A stretch of DNA of 63,344 nucleotides, filler included, from Folioceros fuciformis (Eukaryota): assembly GCA_049999805.1 (NCBI GenBank). It is 31 parts of 31 records of this genome, joined end to end, with 100 filler letters (N's around TTAATTAATTAA, not from the genome) between each part and the next. Parts side by side here need not be neighbours in the genome. Positions count along the whole stretch, not along the records: positions 32,752 to 36,942 come from JBNGIO010004767.1; 30 more parts are not named here. One strand, written 5' to 3'. Both the position numbers and the translations under genes were made by a program. This document shows, piece after piece, positions 1,953 to 63,344 of the stretch. Position 1 is the first letter of the stretch. Every line of letters begins with the position of its first letter. The notes beneath the pieces are model-generated. The model was not told where the DNA came from, searched no databases, and saw nothing but the letters and a program-made list of their open reading frames with translations.

Positions 1953-1964
1953 TGGTATCAGAGC
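1953..1964 (+). promoter_or_regulatory. Primer-binding site, tRNA-iMet
   Basis: TGGTATCAGAGC directly after CA. Confidence 0.9.
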
Positions 1965-2358
1965 AGGCCAGGCGTTGCTACGACCCCTGCGCCCTCTAGC
2001 AAGGCGCAAATGCTTCTTGTCACCTTGACAGAAAACCCATGGATCGCACCAACGCCCTGCACACGAGCTAGCAACCCTGGAAATCTGCTGCCATGGGCTA
2101 CCTGAATCTGCAGCAGTGGGTTGAATGGATGATGTTCTTGCGCCCTTTCTTGAACCCAGAGCTTGCATTTCTGATTGAGCGGGCAGTTGAATCAGTCCTG
2201 GCTAGAGAGGAGGTCATGGCCCTGTATCCCAAGCGCTGGTGCTTCTCTGTTCGAATGCGTGCAAGACTCATGCTCAACAAGAAGTTTGCAAGGCGCGTCT
2301 AGCGCTGATCTTGGACCTGCACAGCCAGTAAGCAGTTAGAACTGGTGGGGAATGTTGC

Positions 2359-2680
2359 ATGGCATACCGTCGTAGGAGGAACAGAGGAGCGGAGTCACGA
2401 ACTTACCATCCTGTCCCCCCATATGAGGTCACCAATATTTCCCCTAGTAGACAAGGTCGTCCTGACTGGAGAGATCTTTTAAATAGAATTCCTGAGCTAG
2501 CAATAGCCAATCCTAGTATCCATGCCCATCGTAGGTCACTCCAGAATAGAAACCAGTTTGTTTTGAGAGATCGTGTCACACCACAACGTTTTCCTCAACC
2601 TGCCAGAGAATCAAACGAATCCCTTGCAGTTGCTGTCCACCACTTGACCCAAAGACTTGATAACATTAAGAGTACAGCCC
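2359..2680 (+). CDS. Leader ORF downstream of PBS (basic N-terminus, C-terminal heptad segment), truncated by contig end
   Basis: MAYRRRRNR...LAVAVHHLTQRLDNIK; 107 codons open. Confidence 0.45.
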
Positions 2681-9684: not shown

Positions 9685-12600
9685 TGAAAGGACAATACGA
9701 GGCTTGCAAAACTTTCTTGCACTATTTCTCCTTAGCATGAATTCCTAGATAACAATCACCCATTGTTACGACCGCCAGGAGCCACCAGCCCTTGACGGCC
9801 CAAAGCCTGGAGACGACGCCATGCAGTTGCAGCCAAAGCCATGAGAAGGAGATTCATGACCATCGCCAACTTGAAGCCAAGAGAAGACACTAGAAGACTG
9901 AGCCATACAGCCGTCACCAGTCGTGACCAGGAGACAGAGCCCTGCAGCCACCGCCGGAACCCGACTTAGGTCACCAGACCTATGGGTACCCACAACCAGT
10001 CCTGTCCCGTGAAGACGAACGGAACGGACAGCAACATGTTTGAGGCCTTAGGGTCGTTGTAGTGACTGGAGTGAGTTTGTGGGCACCGAGAGAGGTGAAG
10101 CTGACCGCCGGACAGCGAGGCCTGTCCTACGCCTGATGGGAGCTGGAGGGGAGCCCTCGAATCCATCGTCGAGTCGATCAAGTCCGACCCTCCATCCACA
10201 GCAGCAAGGAACCCCATCGCTCTTTCGTGGGAACGAAACCCAATGTCTCAACGACAGTGGGATAAGTGTGGCCACTAAAGGTGGAACCCGTTGGCAATCA
10301 ATGCCCGGGGTTTTGCCTCCACAGGTACCCACAACCAGTCCCGTCCCGTGAAGACGAACGAAATGGACATCAATGCGTTCAAGGCTTAACCTTACTTTTT
10401 GACCCATAACTTACTTTTCGACCTGTTTGACCCTTAAACAATTAGTTTAACATTTACTAATTTAGATTAGAAAGAGTTGATCTTTACTTTTACTAGGGTA
10501 GTTAGACCCTAACCTCAACAGAATTTCTAGTTTGTTGCTAAGGGCTTCTTGGTAAGACACAGGCCAACCCTTCTTATACCATGAACTCTAAGAAAAACGT
10601 AGCCAATTGCTGAAGGCTCATCTCACGAGAGGAAGCCTCTGCCCTGGAAGTCGATATGGGCTTGGCACATATCCTTGCCGTGACGCTTGGTATCAGAGCC
10701 TATCCATCCTGTAGACCCTGAAGGATTGGAATTGGAGCAGAGAAGGGAGAGCATGACGGCGGTTAGAAGGTCAGCTGGCGGGGGTCCTCTAGTCGCTGGA
10801 ACACCCAAGTCCAATAGGGTCAGATCCCAACACAACCACACCCACCCGACATGACTCGTCTCTACCGATCCCCCGAACCCCAAAAGAGGCCGGGCCACCG
10901 AAACACCCAACAGTCCCTTAGTGGGGAGTAGTGGGCAAGGAGGGCTGGACCTCACCAGCACTCAACCTCTCGTTTTATCGCAGTAGCGGAATGGATGAGA
11001 ACTTGAAGAAGTTGGTGGTGGAGCTGTTACCTGGAGAGAAGGACAACAAGGAAATCAAAGCATTAGCCTGCCGACTCCAAGTGATGCGCTACAAGAACTG
11101 GGAGAAGGCCAACGCAAAATTAGAGTCAGACCTGCTGGAGAGTGAGGAGCAGCCCTTCAAACCTTGCCCTTAGCTCGACAAGGAGCTTTTGAGGAAGATC
11201 AAAACCACGATCTTCGACGGGGTCGTGAAGGAGGCACAGGGAGTGTATGACTGGCTTGAAAAAATGGAGAAATACCTCACAGCGAGCGAGAAGGATGACT
11301 TACAATGAATTCAGTTCTATGTAATGTTGCTGGAAGGGTAAGCCTATCGGTGGTGGAGACACAGGGAAAGAAAAGTGGACCTGGGAATGGAACCGGCCAT
11401 ATACACCTGGGCGGTCTTCAGACAGGTCTTCTTGGAGCAATTCCTGTCAACCACAACCGAGACCTATATCACCAATTCCACAAAATCTATCAACAAGGCA
11501 CTATACAAGAGTATTGTGATAAGTTTTTGCAACTCACCTTGGACCTACCCCGACTGGACGAGGAAAAGAAGGTGGAGAAGTTCATCGATGGGCTTCGTTT
11601 TGAGTTGAGAGCCGACGTCAACCAAACGAACCTAGGGACTCTGGTAGAAGCTATCCGGGCCGCCATGAACTATGGGTTGAACAAGTACAAACACCTAGGA
11701 ACAGCAGGTGGTCAGAAGCAGAAGTATGGCAAGACTGTCAATGCAATGAACAAAAAATTGGTGTTCAAAATTCTCACAAAAGCAGAAAAGAAGGAGTATC
11801 AGGAGAAGAAAATGTGTTTCACCTGCACCAATGCGGATCACGGCTCACGAAACTGCCCCCATGGTAAGGAGTTCATTGCATGGCTAAAGGAAACGGGAAA
11901 TACCACCCGAACCAGCCATCCCCACAGTACGCCCAACAACCGTGGCAACCACTCGGTGACCATCGAAGAGGTAGGAGATTGTCTCCCTTCCAGTAACCCC
12001 AAGGCTTGCAACGGCTATTGTGTACTGAACACTTGTGCTTTGCATTACATACCCTTGAAATTTCGGGTACAACTCGAGGGCATGGCAGTCACAGCCCTGC
12101 TGGATAGTGGGGCTAGCCACCACTATATCTCGGAAGCAGCAGCCCACAAGGCGGACCTACACATACAAGACTCGGGTCAGCTGTCCATAGTAGTGACAGC
12201 GCTAGGTAGGAAGGACACCAGTGTGGAGAAGTGGGTAGAAGCTCATCTAACCTCCCCAGCAGGATATACTGAGGAGTTGAGATTAATAGTAATGCCCAGT
12301 CTTGCTCATGATGTGATAGTAGGAAAACCCTTGCTAGCAGCCCATTCCAAACACCTTCAGATAGACTGGTCGAACAATGTGATCAACCTGCAAGTGAACC
12401 ACCAACAGTATGAATTAGTGGGGGAGGCACACCTCCCAAACAAACACCTGTTTGCGATTCCGTGTTACATAAAGCAATTGCTCGTGGCAGCTTCCTGTAC
12501 ATAGCAAAACTGAAGAAAGGTAACCCCGCTGGAAGGCACTATAGAATTGCAAGCAAAGCTAGCAAGACAGGTAGAGGAGGAACTTCCCGAGAGCATGAAG

Positions 12601-14648
12601 TCTCTGTTGGTCGAGTTCAAGGATTTGTTTGCAAATCCCACGAAACTCCCTCCCCGACGCTCTATGGACCATTGAATTGACCTGGTCAAAGGCACCAAAC
12701 CAGTTAGCATCCAACCCTACAAGACGTCAGTCATGGAGAATGCTGAAATCAAACAGCAGGTAGACGCTTTCCTGGCTCAAGGGTTTGTAAGACCCTCAAT
12801 CTCACCTTATGGGGCCCCAGTGTTGTTGGTAGCCAAGCCTGATGGAGGTTGGAGACTTGGTATTGATTACTGAGGTCTCAACTGGGCGACTATGAAGAAC
12901 ATGTATCAGATGCTCGAAATCGATGAGATCCTGGACCAGTTGCATGGTTTAGTATGGTTCTCCAAAATTGACTTGCGCTCTGGATTCCACCTGATCCGAG
13001 TCAAGGAGGGAGATGAACACAAGACGTCATTCCGGACCCACCATGGCCATGATGAGTGGGTGGTGATGCCCATGGGCCTCACCAACGCTCCAGCTACCTT
13101 CCAATGCCTAATGCAGGACATCCTTAGGCTGCTATTGGGACGAGGCATGGAAGTGTTTCTAGATGATATCCTCATCCACTCCGGTGACACAGAAACCCAC
13201 GTCAAGCTAGTTAGGGCAGTGATGCAGCTCTTGCAGAAACACCAGCTCTTGGCAAAAAGGAGCAAATGCACCTTCATGCGCAGGGAAGTTGAATACCTGG
13301 GGCACATTGTCACGAGGGATGGAATCAGGATGGATCCCCGCAAGATCAAAGCCATCGTAGAGTGACAACTGCCCACAGACATCACCCACCTCCACCGGTT
13401 CCTCGGCCTTGCCGGGTTCTACAGGAGATTCATCCAGGGCTTCAGTCAGATAGCCCTCCCTCTGACCGATACCCTCAATCAGTCGGCCAGCAAGACCTTT
13501 CACTTGGATGCAGCAGCCCAGCAGGCTTTCGCCCAGCTGAAACAGGCCTTAAGCACGGGACCAGTTTTGGCAGTAGTGGACCCTAGGGGTACCTACAACA
13601 TACACACAGATGCGTCAAATTTTGCCCTCGGGGCAGTCCTATCACAGGATGGACGAGTTATCGCCTATGAGTCTCACAAACTCCAAGGCATACAGGTTAA
13701 CTATGCAGTCCATGACAAAGAAATGTTAGCCATTGTCCATGCTCTGGCAACATTACTTGCTTGGACAGAAGTTCACAATGCACACTGACCATCACTCCCT
13801 CCAACACTTTTTCACTCAGCCGAATCTCAATGCTAGACAGAGGAGGTGATCAGAATACTTAGCTGATTTCAACTTTGACATCAAATATGTCATAGGACCC
13901 TCCAATGTAGTGGCAGATGCCCTCAACCGCCAAGCCCTCACTTTGATGTCCTCCCAACTGGACACCACCCAAGCAGTTCAAGCAGCGACTCCGGAAGACC
14001 CGCACCTGCAAGATTTACCAACAATTAGTTCAAGACACAGCAGGGGGAGTACCCACAGCCTTAATGCAAACTTACCAGCTTAAGGATGCTTGCGTCTATA
14101 GAAAAGGCTAGCTGGTGATCCCACAACACCTGAAGGACATCCAGCATAGTATCCTACACGATCTGCATGACTCCCCCATCTCGGGACACTTGGGCATTGA
14201 CAAGACCTATGAGCGGGTGAAGACCCACTTTCATTGGGAAGGCCTACATAGTGACTGTATACAATGGGTTAGGAGCTGCACATCGTGTCAACAAGCAAAA
14301 CCCGAACACCAGAAAACACCAGGACCCTTGTTACCTCTGCAAGTGCCTGAAGGCCGGTTCCAATCCATCTCCATGGACTTTGTGACTGCTCTACCCCGTA
14401 CACACACCGGAAAGGATAGTATCTGGGTAATTATGGACAAGTTGTCTAAGTGCTGCCCCTTCATCCCGGTGAACTCCAACATTACAGCATCAAAGTTGGC
14501 CAGCATCTTCACCAAGGAAATCTTTAGACTCCATGGCTACCCCCAGAACGTCATCTCCGACCAAGACCCTAAATTCACAGCAAGGTTCTGGCGGACCTTC
14601 ATGGAGACCTTGGGCATCCAGCAGAGCTTATCCTCCACATATCACCCC
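9685..14648 (+). mobile_element. Ty3/gypsy chromovirus-type element: 5' LTR, PBS(Met), degenerate gag-PR-RT-RH-INT
   Basis: PBS TGGTATCAGAGCC at 10688-10700; knuckle CFTCTNADHGSRNC; LLDSGASH; FLDDIL; TDASNFALGAVL; HHCC zinc finger and ISMDFV; several stops and frameshifts. Confidence 0.95.
10053..10323 (+). repeat. Full ~270-bp structured repeat inside the chromovirus LTR, between two diverged 66-bp direct repeats
   Basis: Matches the reverse complement of 55589-55859; flanks 9985-10050 and 10324-10389 share 55 of 66 positions by hand alignment. Confidence 0.9.
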
Positions 14649-29044: not shown

Positions 29045-30278
29045 TTCCAACTGGATCCCCTTCCTTCATCCTAAGACTATGGAATTGTTCTCTGACATGA
29101 ATCAAAGTGCAGACATTTTGTACTTGGTATGTATCTACCAACTGTTTCCAGACAGCCTCAGCTATCTCTAGAAACTCAACTTCAGTGACTGTTGTCTCAT
29201 CAAGTCCACTCAGAAGTATGGCAAAAGCAATTTTGTTCCCTTTGTTCCACTTAGCTTTCTCATCAGCTGTGGGTTGCTGTGCGTCAGTGGATGGGACAAG
29301 ATTAGGATTTTGGACTGATCCATCTACGTACTCCCACACATCACGTGCATTCAGGTTGGCTTTCATTCTGGCTTTCCAGCTTCCAAACCTAACAGGTTTC
29401 TCGTCAAAACAATCCTTTTCCTTGAATTCTCCAGTGTAGGATGAACCAGCTGTAACGTTAGTACCCATGTTGCTAAGAGGGGGTAACAGGGGTGGTGTAG
29501 GTTGATGCTGCAGAAATGCCGGAAGAACAAAGAAAGGGAACTGCGATGCAAGAGGCTGTAGAAAAACCTCCTCTGCATCCGAAGATTCGTCTACCTCACT
29601 ATCAGACTCAGTATCCCAATGCAAAGACATGAAACGGTAAGTAGCAAACTAATGATGTTTCATTAGGTCAGCATCGGTTCAAAACTAAGCATGATATGAA
29701 ACGCTGTTTTTAGGGCACAAAACCTACTCAAAGACAGCGTTTGGTGATAGATGTCAAGCACAGCCAACCGTCATGTCAGATGAACGTGACGGTTGAGAGT
29801 AGGTTGCTGGCCTCCAGCGCCTGGCGCTGGCTGACGCCCTGCACCAGCGTTGGGGCGCCCACCTGCGCTAGATCTGTGGCAGATCAAGCCGCCTCAGATG
29901 CTTGTCTCCCTTGAGGAGAAGCAACAGACTGATCTCTCAATGTTGATTGGACATCCAGCAAGGTTGAAGCAGAATTGAGACCTCTTGCTGCAAATTCCGC
30001 ACGTAGACTTGAGAGAGTTAGCCTTGTCTCACGATTGTCTTCTAACACAGGGGTCTCTTGTCGATGTGCAGCCGTTCGCCTTCTACATTCAGCCCTGTGC
30101 TGACTTCTGTTGAGAGGAGGATTGAGCTGTGACTCAAAGATCAACTCAGGTAGCCTTTAAGAACGACTAGAGGAAGGGTAAGATGCCTCTGTCTGATAGC
30201 TATGTGAATTCCAGCCAGCTGACTGACACCCAGCCCTGTGATCGCAGAAATTCACAAGAGCCCGATGAGGACGATTGG
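29045..30278 (-). mobile_element. Ty1/copia gag N-terminus with long leader and degenerate upstream ORF (29884-30144)
   Basis: FKEKDCF...WKARMKANL...VWEYVDGS, LRMKEGD (UBN2-type gag). Confidence 0.88.
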
Positions 30279-32651: not shown

Positions 32652-32751
32652 NNNNNNNNNNNNNNNNNNNNNNNNNNNNNNNNNNNNNNNNNNNNTTAAT
32701 TAATTAANNNNNNNNNNNNNNNNNNNNNNNNNNNNNNNNNNNNNNNNNNNN

Positions 32752-35185
32752 CCAACCATAGTACTTAACTTCTTATAATTTGGATGTCCCAGTCGACAGT
32801 GCCAGAGCTGCAGCTCGTTATCTGGATCCAATCGTTTGGCAATATGTGCTTGCACTTGTCCTTCAACAAAAGTTCGACAATTGAGTCGATATAAATCTGA
32901 GTCAAGCACGCCAAGGGTAATTTCTGACTGGCTGTCGGCATCCATGATCCTACATTGGTTTTGATCAAAACTAACATTAACGTTCCACTCCTTGCAGACA
33001 TGCCTGACAGACATAAGATTTTTCACCATTTGTGGAACGTGTAGGACTTGCTTCAAAGTTCTGACAGTGCCATCCTGTAAAAGAATCTTCACTGTCCCCA
33101 CGCCTGCTATGTTGAGACCACTCTCATCACCCAGTAATACAAACTGGCCAGGTAAGTATGGCTGATAGTCAATGAAACTGTCTCGTGTATAGCATATGTG
33201 GGCTGAAGCCCCAGAATCAACGAACCATGAATGTTGATCTGATTTTGCATGTGCTAGAAATACTGTTAGAATAATATTAGAGCTTGAACCCTTTGTTTTA
33301 GCAACGACATTTGCCTCTGGTGATGCAGTTTTCCTCGACTCCCTTGCACGCTTCTTTCGACAGTCAGCTTCAATATGCCCTAGATTTCTGCACCAGTTAC
33401 AAGTGAGTTTTCTATGATTTGGATTGGGTGGAGTCCATGCTCCCACTGCTTTCGGCCTGCCCTGCCAGCCTGACCGGTTCGCAAATCTACCTCCTCTGCC
33501 GCCTCTAGCTCCTCTTCCTGCATATAATATGCGTCCATATGAAGTTTGTCCCTGCATTTTATTTGAATTCATTGAGGCCTCCTCCTCTAACAACGCTCCA
33601 ATGGTGTTAGATAGTGATATATTAGCAGCTGCCGCTGTGCGCAGATTGCTGTTCTGCGTACTGACAAATACCCGATATTTGTCTGGTAGGGACATGAGAA
33701 GAGCAACTGAAGCTTGCAGTTCAGAGACCTTTGTCCCTGCAGAAGCTAACTTTTGCCGTAAATGCCTGAAATGCATTACGTGTTGCTCAATTGTTTCTAA
33801 TTCTTTCATTTTGCAGTTCCAAAAAGAACGTGTAGCATGGACAAGTGACGACTGATTCGTCGTGGCAAACATCTGGGATAGAGCTTTCCATGCCAGATGT
33901 GATGTAAGGGCATCTTCTATATGGTGAATCATGCTATTATCGATGGTAAGTTCGAGAATAGCTCTTGCCCTTAAGTCTCTTTTGTCCCATGCTGTTATGT
34001 CTGCAGCCGGTGCACTAGGATCGGGGCGAGGAAATGATCCATCCACCACATCCCATAAATCTTCAATCTTGAGAAGAGTCGTAACTCTGTGTGCCCAGAC
34101 ATCATAATTGGACCCAGTAAACCGATCCTTATCTTTAAAATCTAACTTCATTGTAGTTGCCATTTTTGGTTGTATCCTCCGTTGATATGCTGTTGATTGT
34201 GTGAGCCAATCTGGTAGATTACCAGGAAACCAAGCTCTAGACCTGGTGGGAGGTGGTGATGCGGATCTGTGTTTAACCTGGTGTCTACCCAGATGACAAG
34301 ACCTACCGGTCTCGTTCAATTTTTCTGCGGAGGTAGTCCGTTTGAGTGGCATTCTACTGATGCCACATCTTCAATCTTTTGTGCAGGAACAGAGGATTGA
34401 ATGACTAATACTGTGTCCAAGATTATCTGAAGTCGAACAAAAACATTTTCTAATTTATGTTCCAGGACATTTATATGGTCGTGCAACCCTTCAACCATGG
34501 AACGGGACAGGTTAGGTGACAGATCTGAACTAGTTTTGGAGCGTGATGTTTTTCCGCGACTTGGGCAATAAAAATGCTGACTATTCGACTTTCTATCATG
34601 TTCAAATGGAAATTGGCACTGATATGACTGTCTACGACCTGTGTTTGCTAAGGATTGTGCAATTGTGTCTCCTAAATTTGACAGAAGCCAAGAAGACAAG
34701 TCTCTGTCTGTATCCTCAGCATACCGTCCCCTGGCGCGACCACGATGAGGCATAGTGTATTCAGATCAGAGTACGGGAAAGCTCGATGGATATAAAAAAT
34801 TTCCATTCATAGGTTTGTAGAATGGTTTTTATTCTAATATCGTGGTGCAGGCGCGCGCAAGCAAATCTAGTCGCGACATGATAGAACAAAAGCGTTCGAT
34901 CATGGTGCGCCAGATTTCCTTGCACGCGTAGGTGTCACGACCAAACCTGGCTCTGATACCAAAGAGAAAATTAAGTGGCGTGAGAAGCATAATCCTTATT
35001 GTGACCGAGTGCCTTATGAAGGCACTAAAACCGTTATTACAGTTAGGGTTTCGATTCACTTGTAACTTAAATTAAACCCGCTAATATCTAGAGAATTACT
35101 AAACTGTATTTTATATATAATAATAATTATAAATGCAATATGTCACTGCTAGACTATACTACAATTACACTTCTAATTTCTTTTT
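32752..35185 (-). mobile_element. Ty1/copia 5' half: short LTR, PBS(Met), extra ORF, uninterrupted gag-PR
   Basis: PBS TGGTATCAGAGCCAGGTTT at 34943-34961; CNWCRNLGHIEADC knuckle; WFVDSGASAH; LWHCRLGH. Confidence 0.95.
34316..34753 (-). CDS. Extra ORF between PBS and gag (145 aa; basic N-terminus, heptad segment)
   Basis: ATG-initiated and stop-free; overlaps the gag ATG (34352) by 37 nt in another frame. Confidence 0.6.
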   Translation of the reverse strand: MPHRGRARGRYAEDTDRDLSSWLLSNLGDTIAQSLANTGRRQSYQCQFPFEHDRKSNSQHFYCPSRGKTSRSKTSSDLSPNLSRSMVEGLHDHINVLEHKLENVFVRLQIILDTVLVIQSSVPAQKIEDVASVECHSNGLPPQKN

Positions 35186-35339
35186 CGCCACGTTCCCCTA
35201 GTGGCATGGGGAATCAAGGCCGAGGTGCATCTGCACACTGGATTAACCCTCTAACCCAACAGCCTGCAACACAGGGTCAAGGGAGCTCTTCACCAAAAAA
35301 AACCTCCCCCCTCAATGACAAGCCTGGCCTCTTATACTC

Positions 35340-36942
35340 TCTTGGCAAGGAACCCCCTGTCACTGCCTAACCAGGTCAGCACGCCACAGACAACCCTCCA
35401 CTCGTCAAAACCCTAAACCTAACTCTGACCTAACCTTACTTTGACCTAACCCTAACCCTGACTTGTGCCCCTGGTTGCTCTTATAAAAAATAATCAACCT
35501 CTCAAAACTACCAAAAATCGTGAGTGCCTCTCAACACTCTCTTCCCCTCTCTGATCCTCTCCTTTCCCTTAGATCATCTGCAATCCTTCAGAGACCCCAC
35601 CGTCTTCAGATCCTTCCCTCCATTCTGCTAGCCAAGGCCCATGACCCAGTAGAGCTACTCATCTAGTGCCCCTGAGTGGGCACCTTGTAAGCTTGGCACT
35701 CAAAGCGACAATCCACCATCTCTGCCAACATAACTATCACTAGGCTTCCCACCCGCTAGCAACACGCCTGTACTAGGCTTTCCGCCTGGATGGGGCAGTT
35801 CGCAGGTCCCTTAGCTTTGTCTACACGCATTCACCTAGCGGGCTGCGCCCCCGACCTTTGTCCACACCATCGTAGCCTCCCTGTTCGAAGCATGACTCGA
35901 GCCGGAGCTAGACTCGAGCTGCTTCCCCTCCACCTTGTCCCTGAATCCCGGATTTCTAGCCCCACCTCCTAGGACCCGGCAGCCTAGCCGTCCTGCAGCC
36001 TGGCTGCACCGCCACCACCTTGCCATCTGCTTAGGCTAGCCAACCACTTGGATCCAGTCCGCCCGCTTAGCAACCGCCTGCTTAGATCCCGATCCAGGCC
36101 TCTCAGTGCCTTCTAGCCAGCCAACCTGCCAAATGTGATCCCGGCCAGCCTACCATGGTTGCTTGGATCTTGCCATCCCGGCCCCGTCCAGCCTTAGCGA
36201 TCCGACCGGGCTTGGATTTGCCTGCCAGCCAACCGGATCGCTAAGGCTATCTGGCTGAATTCCCCTGCAGCCGGTCTACTCGTCGACCAGTCAGACTACC
36301 CGCAAGCCGGCCTGCTCTACCCGGCCTCGACCAGCCTACCTGCCTCCACCGGATTCTGCCCCCTGCAGCCAGCCGCCTGTCTGGTTTCAATTCGCTTGCA
36401 CCAGCCTGGATGCACGACCCCCTGTTTGCCTGGATCCGGCCACGTGCGACTCGGACTCTGGCCACCTCCTGGATCTGGCAGCCTTGCCTGGCTGCCTGGC
36501 CGGGCTGGGCTGCGCGCTCCTCAACTAGCTGCTGCTAGGCCAGCCACCTGCTAGGATTCCCCCCCGGCCTGGACTTCCCCCAGCCGGCCGCCAGCCGCCC
36601 AGCAGCTGCTTGGCCCCAGCTCGACCAGCCGCAGCCAACCTGCCATCTGAACCGGCCAGGGGGCTGCCGGAGCCCTTAGGCCAACCTGCCATCTGAACCA
36701 GCCAGGGGGCTGCCTGAGCCCGCAGGCCAGCCGCCGTAGCCCATATCAGGCTCCCAACCTGCCACCCCTACGGATTCGGCTAACCCGCCGCCACGCGGCC
36801 TGCCTCAGCCCTGCCCCAGCTTGCCATGCCCACAGCGCCCTGCCAACAGCCTGCCTCCAGCGTCTCGCCAGCCACCAGCCTTCCTGGCTTTGGCCTAGCT
36901 CTGCCGACCTCCTACTGCCCAGGCCGGGTTGGGTTGTTTGGC
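35340..36942. repeat. GC-rich cryptically simple repeat region (CCAGCC/CTGGC/GGATC motifs), probably TE-internal
   Basis: 36770-36840 resembles 55493-55570; same word composition as 53923-55588 and 61060-62529. Confidence 0.6.
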
Positions 36943-38577: not shown

Positions 38578-40038
38578 NNNNNNNNNNNNNNNNNNNNGAT
38601 CAATTCCTGGATAACACATTCCTACCTGCCTGTGAGCACAAAGCAAGGAGCACACAAGTAAAGGAAGAAGGTGTGGTGATTGATCGTTTCCCACAGTGTG
38701 AGGAGTGTGTCTTTGTAGTCAGAGACGGCCGCTGGGATTGTCGCTACATTCCTACACCATTGAACCCACAACACCCAAAACCTGCTGAGATTCCTACACA
38801 AGCAAACCTTAGAACTTGTGTTAGTAGAGAAATTCCCTATGCACAATCTATAGCTAGTCATGGAAAGAAGCTAGTATGCAGCCAATGTTCTAACATAGGC
38901 CACTTTCCTACACCTAGTGAACAATTGCTAGTAGGAACACAGGATCTTCCCATAGCACAGGCCGACAAAATTCAATCAGCCTTAGAAGTCATTAGAAATG
39001 ACATAGCAGACCTCAGGAGATCTATCCTTCATGTGTCTCAGCAACTTGCTAGTTTGTCATTCAAACCTATCAAACCAGATGAGCAACCCAAACAAGATTA
39101 CCCAACACTGGACTTCCTAAAGATGGTAGTTGTGCTGAAGGATGCTATGACCAGTATGGAACCAAGCTGCACTGGTGTTGAAGCACCCCTGGATGTCTGA
39201 ATTGTATGAATGACACCTGTCCATGTCATACAGAAATTGGCGCAACAGAATTCCATTGCGCAAGACACCTAAGAGGCCTAATTCGGATCCTTCTCTGTCT
39301 CCACTAGCAGAAGATCCATTAGGACTTGCACAGCAACCTGCTCAGTCATCATCATCATCCCAGGGGAGTACCAATGTTGTACCTGCAAATTTACAAGCAG
39401 CCCAAGTAGCTCATGTAGCACAGGCTGCCTTCACATCTCAGCAAACACAAGTAGAACAGGTGACTCAAGCTGTCAGTGCAGCACTAGGAGCACAACTAAT
39501 CACAATATTTTGCACAATGAGTACTCCACAAAATGTCACCAACAACACAACTGTGAATAACATTAAAATAGACTTTAAAGAAAAGGATAGATTTACTGGT
39601 TCACAGTTTGACATATGGTCTCTACGGGTTCAGACCATCCTAAAAGAACATGATTTATGGGAGGTTGTTGATGGAACCTCTGTAAAACCAGCAGCAGGTT
39701 CACCACCTGCTGACATTGCAGCATGGGTTAAGAAGGACTTACGAGCATTGGGAGTTATTCAGTCCGCGCTTGATGGGACGATGATGCATCACACAAGAGA
39801 TGCAGCATCAACCAAGGCCGTCTAGGACTCTCTATCTCAAGTATACCAGGTTGTCAATGGGACATCCTTGGTTTGTGCAACCCGGGACTTCTATAACTGC
39901 AAAATGCGGGAAGGTGAATCAGTTGAGCAACACGTCATTAAGTTTAGGCAACTGAGGTCTAAGCTTACCTCAAGTGGCACCACCACTACTGAGATGCAGG
40001 CCGCTGTGGCTCTACTGTTGTCACTTCCTGAAAGCTAT
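38578..40038 (+). mobile_element. Ty1/copia leader with extra ORF and gag N-terminus
   Basis: DFKEKDRFTGSQFDIW...LWEVVDG, CKMREGESVEQHV; one stop at 39823-39825. Confidence 0.9.
38673..39200 (+). CDS. Extra ORF upstream of gag (Cys motifs plus heptad segment)
   Basis: 175 stop-free codons with CEEC, CSQCSNIGH and IQSALEVIRNDIADLRRSILHVSQQLASL; ends 22 nt before the gag ATG at 39223; true start probably lies upstream. Confidence 0.6.
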   Translation: MVIDRFPQCEECVFVVRDGRWDCRYIPTPLNPQHPKPAEIPTQANLRTCVSREIPYAQSIASHGKKLVCSQCSNIGHFPTPSEQLLVGTQDLPIAQADKIQSALEVIRNDIADLRRSILHVSQQLASLSFKPIKPDEQPKQDYPTLDFLKMVVVLKDAMTSMEPSCTGVEAPLDV

Positions 40039-40138: not shown

Positions 40139-42418
40139 GGGGGGGGGGTAAGAGAGAACAAAGCCGGGGAGACCCCGGAGGCGAGGCGTGTAATGTGTGT
40201 GGGGTGCACGAGACGTGGTGTGTATGAGTGACTGGTCGCGAGGAGACTGGAGAGACTGTGAAGAAACTGAATGGAGACCGCCAGGGCGTATCTAAGGTGG
40301 GAGATCACGTGGGTGGAAGGCGTCTAACAGATTGTTGCTGTTCATGTGTGCGTGCGCTTGTTTCTAAGGTGAGTGAGACGGTTTGTGGTGAACCAAGGAA
40401 GGGAAGCGCCAAAGAGGATGCGCAGGCGGGAGGTAATCAGTCGGGTAGGAATGACCGGGTGGAAGAGAAAATCCTAGAGAGCGGGAACTAAGAGGGAGAG
40501 AGAGAGAGAGAGTGGGACCCACGAGCGGTACACCGTCAGGCGACCGTCGCCCGAAAGGCGACAGAGGCAGCCCGGTGGGCAACCAAGGGTAGTCTAGGGG
40601 AAGGTAGCCCTTGGGGCGACCGGGTGGTTGAGGGGTCGTCCGGTGGGGCAGTAAGGGGGCTTGGTAAGGTCCGAGCACTGGACGTGTGTGCGTGGGTCAG
40701 TCGAGCTTTAAGTGCTAATTGACTTTAGAAGCTAACCTGTGTAGTTAAACACAAATCATTCCCTTGGGATTGAATCCCAGAGCTACAACGACATAGAGGG
40801 CTTGTGTGGACCTCGCGGTACCCCCGGGTACCATATTTTAACCCCACATTTTGGCGCCGTTGCCGGGGAATGAATAGTTGTTACACACATAGGTGAGTGA
40901 CTTACAGTTGAGTAAGGGCTTGAGGAAGAACCAGTAAGGCCAAGGAGGGCCAGAACAGTGGTTGATGGATGCCGCGGGGGAGGGACAGTAATTCAGAGTC
41001 CGAGCCGTTGGAACCAGTTATGGAGAGGCGACAGCGCCAGGCGGTGGAACGATCGCAGCGAGTGTCTCGAAGGTCACAACGTGGGCGTGGGACAGCCGCC
41101 AGTCAGGAAGAACCAAAGAGTCCAGCCATTGAGGGAGGGCGTCCGCTGACAGAATTAGCGGAGTTAGAGGAAGAGGTATTTGGTGTTGAATGCTCACGGG
41201 AACGACCCTTGGAGGGTGTGGTGATCGAACTAGGCCAACCTCGCCAACTTCGTCAGTTTCGCGAACCCAGTGCAGTTCAGGCAGACTTTGTAGGAATAAA
41301 GGTCAGACCTGGGCTGGTAGCCGGACAGACTACTGCGGTAGCCCAAACCACTGCGCCAGCCATGAATACTGTTCCAGTTGCTGTGACTACTAAGCAGTCA
41401 TATCCCCTGTATGAAGAGAAAAAAGGATACGAGGACCTTGACGATTTTGTGGAGCGTTTTGAACAGTTAACCATCTCGAATCAGGACGCGAATGACGCAC
41501 AGCGCGTGCAGCTGTTCTATGGAGTTCTGCGAGGAGCCGCCGCCAAATGGTACAAGAGGGAGTACTTGAAGACAACAACACCTTCGGCCACCTTCGACGC
41601 GCTCAAGAGGTCATTTTGTGAGAGATTCCGCGGGGTGGATGTCGAAGGGTATGTCCTGTCAAAATTGGAGAGGCTACCGCGAAGGCAAAGGGAGACGCTG
41701 CAAGCATATGTGGAGAGGTTCCACAGTCTGCGAGATCGAGCGGGACCTCATTCGGAGCTAATGGCTATTTGATGGTTCGCAAGGGGTCTGGGGTCAGCCA
41801 TGGGCAGGCACGTGCGCTTGCAAGCGGAGAGGGATCTGGAGCGAGCCATAAGGGCTGCGCTGAATTATGAGGAATCCAAAAAAAAAGGCTTGGAAGGAGG
41901 AGAAACAGAGTCATGAGGGGAGGAAGAAACATTCAAAGGGAAAGAAGAAATACTCCTCCTCGGAGGAGAACTCATCGACGGAGGAGGGATCCTCGAGTGC
42001 CGTTTTGGACAACGCGACCACTGAGGATTCGTCAAGTTCAGAGGAAGACTCATTGGAGGACGAGAGAAGAAGGAGAAAGCACAGGCAGTCGAGTAAGTCA
42101 GGATCGCAAAAAAAAATTCGGTCCAAAAATAGGGGGTCTGGGAGGATCAAGGCAGAGCCTGGGAGAGCGAAGAGAGGGGCTGAGCAAGTGAGGAAGGAGG
42201 TAGAGTTGGCAACCAAGAAGGTTGAACAGCAGGGGAACAAGATGGGAGAGATTCTGGCCAAACTGGAAAAACTGCAAATCAATGCTGTAAAGGACCATGA
42301 GAGGAGGAGGGTCGCGATGGGGGGAAGGGCAAATCTTTTTTGTTCAACATGCGGACAGCAGGGACACTCCAGGGCGAGTTGTCCGCAGGTTAAGGTGCAG
42401 ATTGTGGAATACGAAGAA
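40139..42418 (+). mobile_element. Athila/Tat-like Ty3/gypsy 5' LTR end, PBS(tRNA-Asp) and degenerate gag; interrupted by a new LTR (TGTAGGATC) at 42419
   Basis: LTR ends CCCCACA at 40848; LRGAAAKWY, ETLQAYVERF, knuckle CSTCGQQGHSRASC. Confidence 0.9.
40852..40869 (+). promoter_or_regulatory. Primer-binding site, tRNA-Asp
   Basis: TGGCGCCGTTGCCGGGGA, complement of the plant tRNA-Asp(GUC) 3' end and the usual Athila PBS. Confidence 0.9.
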
Positions 42419-48659: not shown

Positions 48660-49380
48660 TGCTCCCATCCACCACCTTGCTAATGGTCTCTAGGATTTTG
48701 CGAATCATGGGGACGAGCTGAATCGGCAAGGCTGGTAGACCCACCCACAAAAAATGCCGCTTGATTTTAGACTTAGATTTTTCTTGATTGTACTCCAAGG
48801 AGACCAGGCCTCCACCACCATCGGAGACCAGGCCTCCACCACCATCGGGATAGAGTCTCGGACTGTCAGCGTCGTTTGCAAAAGGGCCTAAGCCCCAACG
48901 GCCTCGTCACACTTTATTTGGAAGGAACCATTTGCTTTCAAGAAAACATATGCAGGGGGGCAACCCGTTACCTGAGCCACCCAGTCCTCCAATTCCTTCA
49001 TAGTAGGAGGACCACCAGACAGGAGCTTCCCCACAACCCAGTTGGCAGCAAGCTTGTCCTCTTCCTTTTGAAAGAATCTCACCTCAGTAAGCACACCCGT
49101 GAGTGGACCCAGATGTAACCCTGACTTTTGTCGAACCCGAGGCATACTCTTGAGAAGGGCCCGGTTGCACATGTGCCTGTGCCTGCGCAGAATCCAAGTC
49201 ATCCAACTGTACCTGCGAGCCTTTCTTTGCCGCGACATTTTTCCGGCTATCATCAGAAGGGTTAGATTCCTTCTCCCCCTCGTTTATCTCCCGCGCCTTC
49301 TGTTTATTATAGCACAAACCGACTACTGCCGCCCATGTGCTACCTGTTAAACCCCTCCGTGGGGGGCTCGCTGACTCCAT
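48660..49380 (-). pseudogene. Plant L1 LINE ORF1 (DUF4283-like), degenerate
   Basis: STWAAVVG, WVVGKLLSGGPPTMKELEDWV, VVEAWSP (24-bp duplication at 48799-48846), LWVGLPALPIQL. Confidence 0.75.
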
Positions 49381-49514
49381 TGAGCCACCGAGCTAGATCC
49401 TTCCCGGTGCCATCGCCGTCCCCTGAGGGCCGTCCCTCCTCATTGCTCATCAGCAGCTCTCCCACCTTCACGTTGCCCCACTTTCAACACGCACCCAACA
49501 GAGTCTACCAAAGT

Positions 49515-50210
49515 GCAGCGGATAAAGACAATTTTAACGGCACTAGGTATGACATATGGAGTGTTAGAATGAAATCAACCTTGCTTGCTCGTGGAGTCTG
49601 GAAGGTGGTTGATGGATCTGATCCGGACCCAGGCACTCCATCTAATCCTACAACAGCAGGAGTTACAATTACCCAAGCACAGAAGGATACATGGGATAAC
49701 CTGAATAGAATTGCCATGGCCTTGCTTGTTAATGGGCTTGATTCAGATCTTGTCCCCGAAGTAGAGTTCCTCACCAATGCCAAGGCAATTTGGGATCAGC
49801 TTGCAGGAACCTACAAAGTTGAAACTATGATGAGCTCATGCGCAGTAAGGCAGCAATTTTATACCTTGCGCATGAAGGAAGGAGATTCTGTTACAGCATT
49901 CACCAGTCGATTTCGGTATTTGCGTGCCCAAATGGCTGCTCTTGGCACAACTATGCAAGAAGTGGATGCGGTGGCTCAGCTTCTCACCAGCCTGCCTCCC
50001 AGTTACCAAACATTTGTCATAACACAGAACGGTCCAATTCGAATTGCTGGCCAGAATGTCAAGCTCACAGATGTCATTGGGGCTCTTTACCAAGAGGAGA
50101 TGAGCCGCCAGAAGGCATCAAGGGGATAGCGTTCTAAAACAGACAAAGTATTTTCTGCGACAAGAGGAGGTCGTTTCAACACAAGAGGTAGAGGGAGAGG
50201 TCAATCACCT
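49515..50210 (+). mobile_element. Ty1/copia gag fragment lying head-to-head with the LINE
   Basis: DKDNFNGTRYDIW, VWKVVDGS, LRMKEGDSV, LLTSLPPSY. Confidence 0.9.
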
Positions 50211-56333: not shown

Positions 56334-56545
56334 ATCTTAGCTTCATCAAAGGTGACAGTGCGGGCGTAGATAGGAATCCGAGAGTCCAAGTCCATGAGCT
56401 TGTAGGCTTTGCGGTCATCGCCATAACCGACAAACACCAACTTGCGAGCACGAGCATCAAGCTTGTCACGAAGCTGTGATGGGACAAGAGCATAGGCAGG
56501 GCAACCAAAAACACGAAGATGTGAAATTAAAGGCTTGCTCCCATG
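56334..56545 (-). mobile_element. Ty1/copia integrase C-terminal fragment
   Basis: HLRVFGCPAY, KLDARA, FVGY, KAYKL. Confidence 0.88.
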
Positions 56546-56905
56546 CTTGGTATTATCCAGTTCCACATTTGGTCTGACGCTGTCGATGATGAAATATAAG
56601 TAAATGCACTTAAAACAATTAATTTCATTAAAACATTTACATAGTTGGTTCTTAGAAAAGAAGAAGTAAGTGTTTTTAAAATATAGCACAAATTAAACTA
56701 AAAATGTGAAACGTGGTAGCTCTTCACTTGGAGTCGTAACCCTAACGAAACGACACCATAAATTATTTAACCATAACTCAATGTATCTTAAAAATCAAGC
56801 ATAACCCTTTAATGCTGCTGCTACCACCTCTAGGTGCTCCCGAACTCGGCCTCTAGATCCTGGCTGCCGACCTTGATCCTAGATCTAAGGGTGGCTAGCT
56901 CATAG

Positions 56906-57251
56906 GCTCTGATACCAAAGATGTTACGGGGCAGCTCTGGATTCCAGCTTTGGGAAAATGGACGTTCTCTTCATGTTTGGATTCGCTACAAATACATGTG
57001 TGTGAGCAGTGTCAAGAAGGTTGTGCCTGCCCGCCTAACTACCCTACTTCTTGGGATTCTACTGGTATAACAATTTTTAGTTATCTGGATATCCTGTATA
57101 CTGGCATTTATCTATTTAATTAGTATATGTTTAATTATTTCGTATCAGCTGGGTATTCGCTAAAACCATGAGTGTTTTGTAGGGTTCATGCTACCTATTT
57201 CGTGGTAGCTTCGGTTCCTTGGCGGATGACTTGAGTGGCCTGCTTGTCATC
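56906..57251 (-). mobile_element. LTR (about 56922-57251) plus PBS(Met) at 56906-56917, inserted into a copia pol
   Basis: Minus strand reads TGATGAC...CCCCGTAACA-TCTT-TGGTATCAGAGC. Confidence 0.65.
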
Positions 57252-62529: not shown

Positions 62530-63344
62530 TGTTTGGAAGTAACCCGTTAGGGTTAGCTTTACTTAAACATAGCAGCTGTTAGGTTATGAATATATACTTT
62601 AGGTTTGAGCTATTGCCAAATGTCATGACTCGTCAAGAGTCCTGTATATAAACACTTTTGTTGATCATAATTAAACATCTTTTGTGCATAATATTCTTCC
62701 TAGAATACTCTTATGTTTACATGGTATCAGAGCATGGAGGTTTTGATACGCGATCTTATTCTCTACTTGTAAGATGCATTCGTCTAAATTGTAGATGTAT
62801 GTAGCCAAACTGGATCATAGACACAAGACCCAATGACCATAATTTGTAGTCCCTGGTTCGTGTGTCTAAGACTCTATCTTGCTACCTACATGACAGTATT
62901 AGTGATAGGCTATTTACATTTAGCAGAAACAATCATGAAACATTTCCGCTGTGCAAATCTGCCTGCATCAGAGTGGCAGATTATGATTTTCTAAATTGAA
63001 AAATGCCTCGCCGGGGACGACCTCGTGTCGAGCATTCAGTTGGAGTGCCTTGCAGCCATCACAATTTCAGGCAACACATGGGATTAGCCAGACCTGCTTG
63101 GGACGATAGGGCAAGACAGGACGACATCCCATACACCTTGCCTTTCAACGTGCACGCGATTGGGTGTTCGAGAGACAGGCATCCAGAAGTCGAGTTGCGG
63201 AATACCTTCAATTCCCGTCCAATAGACTTACTTGAGATTGTAGGGGCTTACAGAGTGCTCAACGACAGGTTGACAATCACAGAATCAGCGTTGTTGACGG
63301 CGTTCTCTTGCCAGGGTGAGGTGCATATTGCTTGACATCAAGAA
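62530..63344 (+). mobile_element. LTR retrotransposon 5' end (probably copia): 192-bp LTR 62530-62721, PBS(Met) 62722-62733, leader
   Basis: TGTTT...TTTACA, AT-rich with TATATAAA, then TGGTATCAGAGC. Confidence 0.8.
63003..63335 (+). CDS. Leader ORF after PBS (110 aa, basic N-terminus)
   Basis: AAAATGC context; MPRRGRPR resembles MPHRGRARGR at 34753. Confidence 0.5.
   Translation: MPRRGRPRVEHSVGVPCSHHNFRQHMGLARPAWDDRARQDDIPYTLPFNVHAIGCSRDRHPEVELRNTFNSRPIDLLEIVGAYRVLNDRLTITESALLTAFSCQGEVHIA

Follow-up and report, generated by a model that had tools for sequence, protein, structure and literature searches.

The window, the whole 63,344-nt stretch of DNA from Folioceros fuciformis that we analysed, chains about 35 contigs in an artificial order, joined by N44-TTAATTAATTAA-N44 spacers. 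Because it is an artificial chain of small contigs, the element described here amounts to just one unplaced contig of 4,191 nt (32752..36942), with a single LTR side and no reverse transcriptase (RT). On the minus strand this contig carries an incomplete LTR side (34963..36942), a primer binding site (34943..34961), a leader (34754..34942), an upstream reading frame of 145 amino acids that we term ORF0 (34316..34753, stop codon included), and a frame for gag, protease and the start of integrase that extends from a conserved Met to the contig end (32752..34163). The gag is of copia type, with Pfam matches to Retrotran_gag_2 (PF14223, E 6.7e-29) and DUF4219 (PF13961, E 1.3e-9), and is followed by Pol_BBD (PF22936) and gag_pre-integrs (PF13976), which is the copia order; the contig stops short of the integrase core and RT. 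The initial annotation had reported an uninterrupted gag-protease, and the downstream frame is indeed open to the contig end.

The primer binding site consists of TGGTATCAGAGC and 7 further bases. The 12-mer matches at 12 of 12 positions (34961..34950, minus strand), in agreement with the Met primer site first assigned to the element, and occurs five times across the window against 0.29 expected. We take the 7 bases that follow it to be complementary to the 3' end of the plant initiator tRNA-Met. The LTR side, read off the sequence 5' of the primer site, contains a high-copy segment (about 35187-35831) in which a TATA-like motif occurs near 35340, and read-contig depth at 35132-35831 is 10-35x that of the internal region. 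No repeat pair that could represent two LTRs was found on the contig. In runs X1 and X2 the internal region is represented by a single read contig at baseline depth, with no second copy at 80% likeness or above, and thus the host copia family is low-copy. An Rfam scan of the contig gave a single sub-threshold chance match (E 0.23), and a tRNA scan of the window gave zero tRNA genes. In the accessible part of the REXdb survey, the Bryco lineage has a 1/2tRNA-Met primer site, and Lyco a complete tRNA-Met site in elements of about 4.7-4.9 kb (PMC6317226). The primer type of our contig is compatible with Lyco; element length and RT lie beyond the contig.

ORF0 had been described as a separate ORF starting about 190 nt past the primer site, and its ATG sits 196 nt after the 12-mer. 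It begins MPHRGRARGR (34724..34753), with 4 Arg in residues 2-10, and includes LHDHINVLEHKLENVFVRLQIILDTV. The heptad stretch noted earlier is real: residues 87-122 (34388..34495, about five heptads) hold 11 successive hydrophobic a/d positions, a run that none of 3,000 whole-ORF shuffles equalled. Measured against a coiled-coil criterion of hydrophobic a/d residues over at least four heptads in a helix, ORF0 has such residues at 11 of 11 positions, and in a control set of 34 ORFs, each 100 aa or longer, a run of 11 occurs in this copy (B) alone, the next being 9 and 7 and the others at most 6. AlphaFold2 predicts a helix at residues 84-121 with pLDDT of about 76-83; a two-copy prediction for residues 76-130 scored 0.02, which speaks neither for nor against self-association.

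ORF0 is also longer than expected for its position. Its length was reached in 8 of 2,000 dinucleotide-shuffled leaders, and a frame open for 144 codons past the ATG, as here, was matched in 11 of 5,000 shuffles. Starts counted as Arg-rich, with 4 or more Arg in residues 2-10, mark 5 of 130 ORFs in the window; 3 of these 5 have a Met primer site within 500 nt upstream, compared with 3 of the 125 others (Fisher p 5.4e-4). The length, heptad pattern and placement of ORF0 exceed chance, and a chance origin is unlikely. By codon usage, the leader ORFs cannot be told from random ones (p 0.13 for B, 0.17 for A and 0.63 for C). The 145 codons and the protein-like heptad helix argue for a frame that encodes a product rather than acting as a plain uORF, and ORF0 looks like a real, fast-evolving small protein with a basic tip and a coiled coil.

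Database searches returned no relatives of this protein. ORF0 matched zero Pfam families and zero homologues among 5.8 billion clustered proteins, and a search of 1.84 billion representatives gave two matches, both spurious and due to tandem repeats. The Protein Atlas showed low recognition (1597) with a best match of 0.86, providing leads only, none of them useful. Leader ORFs compared pairwise by BLAST, Smith-Waterman and semi-global alignment against shuffles likewise showed no significant similarity to one another.

The initial annotation proposed a lineage-wide accessory protein, with similar ORFs at 2359, 63003, 38673 and 29884. The first two positions, both on the plus strand, held up as Arg-rich starts behind Met primer sites. 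In copy A (1953..2680), the primer site at 1953-1964 is followed by an ORF from 2359 that starts MAYRRRRNRG and continues for at least 107 aa to the contig end; its length was reached in 66 of 2,000 shuffles and its heptad run of 6, up to the cut end, in 136 of 3,000. Copy C (62722..63335) has a primer site at 62722-62733 and an ORF of 110 aa at 63003-63335 that starts MPRRGRPRVE, reaches a length found in 37 of 2,000 shuffles and lacks a heptad run. The pattern M-P-x-R-G-R-x-R is common to B and C, but the Arg and Gly codons differ. The cut ends of A (RLD..) and C (LLDIK) resemble the gag core over 3-5 residues, which might mean that both ORFs continue into gag without a break; in A this conflicts with the heptad run.

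Of the other two positions, 38673 is a GTG inside a 200-codon open frame that is cut by the contig start and lacks a usable ATG, and 29884 is not an ORF of the ORF0 kind because it begins with ATC, spans 38 codons and lacks an ATG. None of the four has significant similarity to the 145-aa ORF, and no ATG-initiated ORF lies upstream of the copia gags at 29630 and 49335. With neither mutual similarity nor database homologues among the ORFs, and with two copia gags that have no upstream ORF, the lineage-wide claim is not sustained. Our data support a narrower statement, that upstream ORFs recur non-randomly in Met-primer leaders of the F. fuciformis genome.

The frame around 38673 belongs to a copy, D (38598-40038, plus strand), that parallels B in layout. 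Its upstream open frame (38598..39200) spans at least 200 codons, comes off the contig start, has its own stop and carries a heptad helix at residues 122-153. The heptad run of 10 was equalled in 6 of 3,000 shuffles, AlphaFold2 predicts a helix at 119-151, codon usage departs from that of random ORFs (p 0.028), and protein databases contain zero homologues. The gag ORF of D (39223..40038, from the ORF listing and Pfam) starts MSYRNWRNR, 98 codons before the conserved Met; one in-frame stop (39823-39825) falls within its 271 codons, after which the frame is open to the contig end. Its core is 51% identical to that of B over 84 aa (E 8e-30). Stops in both frames part the upstream frame from gag, and thus D has two separate ORFs. 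Both related gag-bearing copia copies have a long-helix, heptad-rich open frame directly 5' of gag, in D in the +1 frame, with the gag of B in the -1 frame. Collinear MAFFT blocks between ORF0 and the upstream frame of D were noise, not significant at any gap setting.

Our leading interpretation, held tentatively and at a little under an even chance, is that the 145-aa frame is a clade-specific, fast-evolving upstream ORF0 of Ty1/copia elements that is translated now or was until recently. Its product would be small and mostly disordered, Arg-rich at the N-terminus, with a single coiled-coil helix some five heptads long, and the frame would end where a gag ORF with its own basic N-terminal extension begins. 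Evolution may be so fast that different families retain an architecture while losing recognisable sequence; the features in common would be placement downstream of the primer site, a basic N-terminal start and a single long heptad helix that lies 25-50 residues ahead of the stop. If the protein is made, the Arg-rich tip could serve in nucleic-acid binding or as a nuclear signal, the helix could mediate oligomerisation, and the product may aid Gag or the genomic RNA.

The junction between ORF0 and gag is where the first competing interpretation must be weighed. As first annotated, an ATG at 34352 is in frame with gag and overlaps ORF0 by 37 nt, gag being in the -1 frame; the open gag frame itself begins 52 nt before the ORF0 stop (overlap 34316..34370). 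From this ATG an in-frame extension of 63 codons (34164..34352, MPLKR...), of uncertain coding status as judged by open frame and codon usage, leads to Met 34163. This Met (AAAATGG) has an optimal start context, the Pfam gag begins 14 aa after it, and the nearest relative in the databases, P0003 (58% identity), starts with the Met aligned to it. The conserved gag start is probably Met 34163, not 34352.

ORF0 could instead be an N-terminal extension of Gag, out of frame here by a one-base difference (through mutation, or through misassembly of a contig that is small and unplaced), so that there is no separate gene and the clade has a long, fast-evolving Gag N-terminus with an Arg-rich start. 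We consider this unlikely. ORF0 and the open gag frame together tile the full 590 nt from the ORF0 ATG to the gag Met, as 13 of 5,000 shuffles do, and ahead of Met 34163 the gag frame has no stop for 69 codons (182 of 5,000 shuffles match); yet the 63-codon stretch ahead of this Met has noncoding-like codon usage (p 0.93), and the start context of the Met, the best available, and its match to the P0003 start count against an extension. The position of the ORF0 ATG, about 200-400 nt past the primer site, is the usual place of a copia gag ATG. In D the Arg-rich start and the gag core share one frame, and the 98 codons ahead of the conserved Met have coding-like usage (p 0.026), but the heptad-bearing frame of the same copy is parted from gag by stops in both frames and lies in +1, against -1 in B. 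A gypsy Gag in the window likewise starts MPRGR, about 180 residues ahead of its capsid domain. Read contigs, likely from the source sample, differ from the window over 32752-34991 by 9 substitutions and one 1-base gap that lies somewhere in that interval; their sequence falls short of the window by one base, the wrong direction for joining the frames. The remaining 470 codons of gag-protease are intact, which also speaks against this interpretation. Two further candidates were considered at this junction. For splicing that would join ORF0 and gag, one donor-acceptor pair was checked by eye and did not restore the frame. An internal duplication, prompted by a protein-level likeness of the ORF0 N-terminus to the gag-frame extension (6 of 500 shuffles, one of 15 comparisons), was rejected because it lacks DNA-level support (130 of 500).

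A second competing interpretation takes ORF0 as a neutral leader ORF without function, an open frame that chance, or the decay of older coding sequence, left in a leader that is long and free of constraint. The absence of homologues and of cross-similarity, the non-significant codon usage, the many upstream ATGs, the low copy number of the element and the two copia gags without an upstream ORF are all consistent with it. In its accessible sections, the REXdb survey also describes extra ORFs as highly heterogeneous and doubts their function (PMC6317226). However, the length of ORF0, its heptad run and the association of Arg-rich starts with primer sites are each improbable by chance, and such features recur across independent contigs; we regard a neutral ORF as a doubtful account. 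Programmed -1 ribosomal frameshifting near the ORF0 stop, yielding some ORF0-Gag fusion beside free ORF0, is very improbable: gag does lie in the -1 frame and the open overlap spans 52 nt, and the near-slippery ORF0 end (CAG AAA AAT TGA) is followed by a small hairpin of 7-10 bp in a 118-nt stretch whose fold (z -1.9) beats 193 of 200 shuffles, 7 being as good, but this signal is marginal, the site G AAA AAT departs from the canonical X XXY YYZ heptamer at its first position, the hairpin begins about 4 nt downstream of the run (5-9 nt being the frameshift criterion), we know of no frameshift site upstream of gag, and D has another frame relation and intervening stops, so that the overlap layout is not conserved.

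A translated ORF0, the interpretation that we favour, raises the question of how ribosomes reach either frame. An ATG census of the leader between primer site and ORF0 found 4 upstream ATGs, opening ORFs of 14-44 codons; these four short ORFs fit the class of regulatory uORFs. Across the census there were 4 to 10 ATGs between primer site and ORF start, and 6 more lie within ORF0 ahead of 34352. With so many ATGs before ORF0 and before gag, simple scanning accounts for the translation of neither. Gag may be made from a downstream start (34352 or 34163) through reinitiation or from a shorter RNA. Run X4, tentatively taken to be RNA, yielded no contig over 34292-34991, which speaks neither for nor against expression.

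These findings bear on how plant copia elements are viewed. Among LTR retrotransposons they are regarded as the simplest, having a single gag-pol frame. If a copia clade does maintain an upstream ORF of 110-200 codons whose product has a basic tip and a coiled coil, this ORF would represent a new class of accessory gene for copia. It would also pose a concrete translation problem, a gag behind a 145-codon ORF and a dozen ATGs, and would give annotators grounds to reduce ORF cut-offs in leaders. If ORF0 is a frame-shifted Gag extension, the clade still has an unusually long, fast-evolving Gag N-terminus.

The view that plant copia normally lack a 5' extra ORF, from which the initial annotation started, agrees with the available part of the REXdb survey, in which copia lineages rarely show a forward one at a cut-off of 250 codons: most have none, and Bianca and Ikeros reach single-digit percentages in a table whose columns we could not assign (PMC6317226). 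The same sections score the eORF-5'F of the Ty3/gypsy lineages Ogre, TatII and Tekay at 250 codons or more only (PMC6317226), and because only ORFs of at least 250 codons are counted, systematic surveys are blind to ORFs of ORF0 size. As far as those sections describe them, the Ogre, TatII and Tekay ORFs are like ORF0 in being sense ORFs between the 5' LTR and gag, lineage-typical in position, heterogeneous in sequence and mostly free of domains. They differ in belonging to gypsy elements with other primer types (tRNA-Arg in Ogre) and in their length of at least 250 codons, whereas ORF0 belongs to copia and has 145. ORF0 is forward and upstream of the polyprotein, as an eORF-5'F should be, and falls short of 250 codons. 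For the further requirement that such an ORF never occur within the polyprotein ORF elsewhere, D has an Arg-rich N-terminus in frame with gag and a separate heptad frame.

Other retrotransposons offer partial parallels. Retrosat2 is a Ty3/gypsy family. In the portion of the source at hand, the ORF0 of rice Retrosat2 and FRetro3 is said to specify a protein related to metabolism, suggestive of a captured gene, whereas our ORF0 has no homologue at all (PMC4093653). The small 5' ORFs of Drosophila 412/mdg1 belong to an insect gypsy lineage and are compared here by description in the available text rather than by protein features (bioRxiv 10.1101/2020.09.24.311225). The one well-known extra ORF of plant copia is the env-like ORF (eORF-3'F) of SIRE, which according to the accessible survey text is present in 74% of SIRE elements and falls into 19 groups with little mutual similarity (PMC6317226). 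Like ORF0 it is fast-evolving; it is found 3' of pol and far exceeds ORF0 in length, whereas ORF0 lies upstream of gag. In the literature that we searched, no Ty1/copia element was described as having an Arg-rich or coiled-coil 5' ORF.

Viral and LINE proteins supply further analogies of form. The Glyco-Gag of murine leukaemia virus is an N-terminally extended Gag isoform with a start upstream of the normal Gag AUG, a layout seen in copy D, whereas in B gag and the upstream ORF are in different frames. A coiled coil is also present in LINE-1 ORF1p. Plant pararetroviruses encode small coiled-coil, basic nucleic-acid-binding proteins upstream of the capsid polyprotein (P3/VAP of CaMV, ORF2 of badnaviruses and tungroviruses). 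These show no sequence or fold match to ORF0, and their basic segment is C-terminal where that of ORF0 is N-terminal; they resemble it in size (about 110-150 residues), in having one coiled coil (oligomerising in the viruses) and a short basic segment, and in lying 5' of the capsid gene. By analogy, and as a long shot, this copia clade might be a "complex" one, in which gag-pol is joined by a small, Arg-rich, oligomeric RNA-binding adaptor for export, packaging or translation of full-length RNA, fast-evolving under conflict with host silencing and comparable in function to retroviral Rev/Rex or to the virion-associated proteins that plant pararetroviruses encode.

We found that a 145-residue open reading frame (ORF0; 34753..34316, - strand; start MPHRGRARGR), lying between the Met primer site and gag of a copia copy (copy B), is a real and non-random feature, as known from contig fragments. 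It is more than chance, and three independent tests (length, protein-like pattern and placement) agree on this. A sense ATG-ORF of its length occurred in 8 of 2,000 dinucleotide-shuffled leaders, and two further leader ORFs that follow Met primer sites, in copies A (from 2359) and C (63003-63335), were matched in length by 66 and 37 of 2,000 shuffles. Within residues 87-122, every one of 11 consecutive heptad a/d positions is hydrophobic (0 of 3,000 whole-ORF shuffles), and in a control set of 34 ORFs of 100 aa or longer ORF0 alone reached 11, the next highest runs being 9 and 7. The AlphaFold2 model made without an alignment was poor as a whole (mean pLDDT 54.6) but had a confident helix at 84-121, bearing out the heptad stretch that the initial annotation had noticed. 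Arg-rich starts (at least four Arg in residues 2-10) occur in 5 of the 130 ATG-ORFs of at least 60 aa in the window, and three of these five begin 197-395 nt past a Met primer site, versus 3 of 125 others (Fisher p 5.4e-4). The ORFs of B and C share M-P-x-R-G-R-x-R with differing Arg and Gly codons, the pattern expected of protein-level constraint if the two are homologous.

The 63,344 bases of the window, with 30 spacers of the form N44-TTAATTAATTAA-N44 and three 100-N runs, are about 35 joined small contigs of 1-5 kb, not a single locus. The TTAATTAATTAA spacer, for example at 32652-32751, is a six-frame stop spacer that marks artificial joining. Because the window is an artificial contig chain, adjoining features need not be genomically linked. 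ORF0 lies on a 4,191-nt contig (32752..36942, read on the - strand), and each of its proposed recurrences is on another contig. The primer site matches the 12-mer TGGTATCAGAGC (34961..34950, -), which is found five times in the window against 0.29 expected, and the contig has one LTR side only and carries no RT. Since a single read contig at baseline depth covers the internal region of B, including ORF0, the B family is low-copy; read-contig depth at 35132-35831, 5' of the primer site, is 10-35x that of the internal region. The deep segment 35187-35831 (-), at whose edge (~35186) the read contigs break, contains telomere-like GGTTAGGG-type units, and may be part of a far more abundant repeat, not the B family's LTR alone. 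In sequencing run X3, made from DNA of the same sample, C>T (258) and G>A (285) differences predominate across 32752-36942, with few of other kinds; the run looks like a bisulfite-type library, whose reads could reveal the methylation state of the B element.

The open gag frame of B (-) begins at ~34370 and continues as far as the contig reaches; it is offset by -1 from ORF0 and carries DUF4219, Retrotran_gag_2 (E 6.7e-29), Pol_BBD and gag_pre-integrs in copia order. The gag-frame ATG reported to overlap ORF0 by 37 nt is present at 34352 and in frame, but gag homology begins 14 residues past a second Met, at 34163. This Met has the context AAAATGG and aligns with the first residue of P0003, the closest database relative (58% identical, E 1e-152). 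Ahead of the gag core, each of the window's four copia gag ORFs keeps 54-115 open codons (including 39223-39516, 29468-29630 and 49335-49520), and the same stretch occupies only ~10-25 residues in the more distant relatives P0004, P0005, P0007 and P0011; this comparison suggests that a long Gag N-terminus may be a local trait. A Ty3/gypsy Gag at 40969-41772 (+; Retrotrans_gag, Ty3_capsid) has an Arg-rich MPRGR start and ~180 residues before its capsid domain, and basic N-termini seem common to the first ORFs of this genome's LTR elements.

A related copia copy, D (contig 38598..40038, +), has a gag core 51% identical to that of B over 84 aa (E 8e-30). Its gag is lightly decayed, with one in-frame stop in 271 codons and the frame open past it; the ORF starts MSYRNWRNR, and the 98 codons to the Met just ahead of the gag core are coding-like (p 0.026). 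Directly upstream, another frame reaches back 200 codons to the contig start without a stop and ends 22 nt before the gag ATG; it has coding-like codon usage (p 0.028), a run of 10 hydrophobic heptad positions at residues 122-153 (6 of 3,000 shuffles) and one confident AlphaFold2 helix (119-151). Between this frame and gag there are stops in both frames, and gag lies in the +1 frame relative to it. B and D therefore share one arrangement, in which an ORF with a heptad helix precedes a gag ORF whose N-terminal extension is basic. The first 100 residues of the D upstream frame (38598-39197, +) are Cys-rich, with several C-x2-C pairs and a knuckle-like CSQCSNIGH; the frame has neither a Pfam match nor a database homologue, and could represent either an enlarged form of the upstream ORF or captured sequence.

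The initial annotation took ORF0 for a lineage-wide accessory protein recurring at 2359, 29884, 38673 and 63003. Placement, length and heptads exceed chance; the lack of mutual similarity, of a Pfam match and of database homologues speaks against a conserved protein. Arg-rich ORFs do stand behind Met primer sites at 2359 and 63003, but the former (MAYRRRRNRG) lacks significant similarity to ORF0 and the latter (MPRRGRPRVE) has neither similarity nor, despite its Arg-rich start, a heptad run. In copy A a heptad run begins at residue 89, as far from the start as that of B, and continues to where the contig is cut (136 of 3,000 shuffles). Position 38673 is a GTG within D's open heptad frame, and 29884 falls away, beginning with ATC and spanning 38 codons. 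No ATG ORF precedes the copia gags at 29630 and 49335. At 10688-13365 (+), a Met primer site precedes a gypsy-type gag-protease-RT with a leader ORF of only 60 aa, its start not Arg-rich; thus, the Met primer type here is not copia-restricted. At 56334-56917 (-), the C-terminal part of a copia integrase follows a Met primer site by ~300 nt, an internally deleted copia copy without gag and protease.

ORF0 has no Pfam match, and a word-indexed search of 5.8 billion clusters returned no homologue. HMMER against 1.84 billion representatives gave two matches only, long tandem-repeat proteins aligned in 7-8 weak stretches, which we regard as spurious. No pair of leader ORFs was significantly similar by tblastn, BLASTP, Smith-Waterman or semi-global alignment against shuffles. 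Codon usage was scored with tables renormalised so that mere stop absence earns nothing (the correct frame scored top in 20 of 23 true coding chunks), and leader ORFs were no more coding-like than same-composition random ORFs (p 0.13 for B, 0.17 for A, 0.63 for C). Between primer site and ORF start lie 4 (B), 10 (A) and 8 (C) ATGs, and six further ATGs lie between the ORF0 start and 34352. The most likely reading, to which we give slightly less than an even chance, is that ORF0 would be a clade-specific, fast-evolving upstream ORF whose predicted product is a basic-tipped coiled-coil protein.

It is unlikely that ORF0 is instead a frame-shifted Gag extension, a single coding region broken by a one-base length difference. 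ORF0 and the open gag frame, overlapping by 52 nt, do span the entire 590 nt from the ORF0 ATG to Met 34163, and ahead of that Met the gag frame has 69 open codons (182 of 5,000 shuffles match), the appearance expected of a region broken in this way. Small unplaced contigs are error-prone, and within 32752-34991 the window departs from read contigs of the probable source sample by 9 substitutions and one 1-base gap. However, the read contigs are one base shorter, the wrong direction for joining the two frames; the 63 codons that precede Met 34163 in the gag frame have noncoding-like usage (p 0.93), and copy D has two truly separate ORFs. With the codon scores on one side and the shuffle tests on the other, a neutral ORF is similarly improbable. 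A programmed -1 frameshift joining ORF0 and gag is conceivable, as the overlap ends in CAG AAA AAT TGA and a small hairpin comes after it (fold z -1.9). It deserves little weight, since the heptamer is non-canonical and the frame relation of B is not common to D.

A clade-specific upstream ORF, the reading we prefer, can be compared with known systems. In REXdb (PMC6317226), extra ORFs are scored only from 250 codons and a 5' forward class is defined, common in gypsy (Tekay 33%, TatII 23%, Ogre 21%); at that cut-off of at least 250 codons the table gives no such 5' ORF for most copia lineages, and single-digit percentages of no assignable class for Bianca and Ikeros. Its authors call extra-ORF proteins highly heterogeneous, and excluded any ORF standing apart in some elements but joined to the polyprotein in others (PMC6317226). 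A bean survey reports that 63 of 65 copia families encode the polyprotein alone, and mentions a rice ORF0 between 5' LTR and polyprotein (PMC4093653). Small 5' ORFs mark the Drosophila 412/mdg1 gypsy lineage (bioRxiv 10.1101/2020.09.24.311225), and a review of additional ORFs deals chiefly with those on the 3' side. The full-text literature searched yielded no description of an Arg-rich or coiled-coil 5' ORF in copia. The small proteins of plant pararetroviruses that combine a coiled coil with a basic segment and LINE-1 ORF1p may be functional analogues of ORF0, and MLV glyco-Gag would be the analogue for a fused, Gag-extension layout. ORF0 would belong with the already known extra ORFs of LTR retrotransposons.
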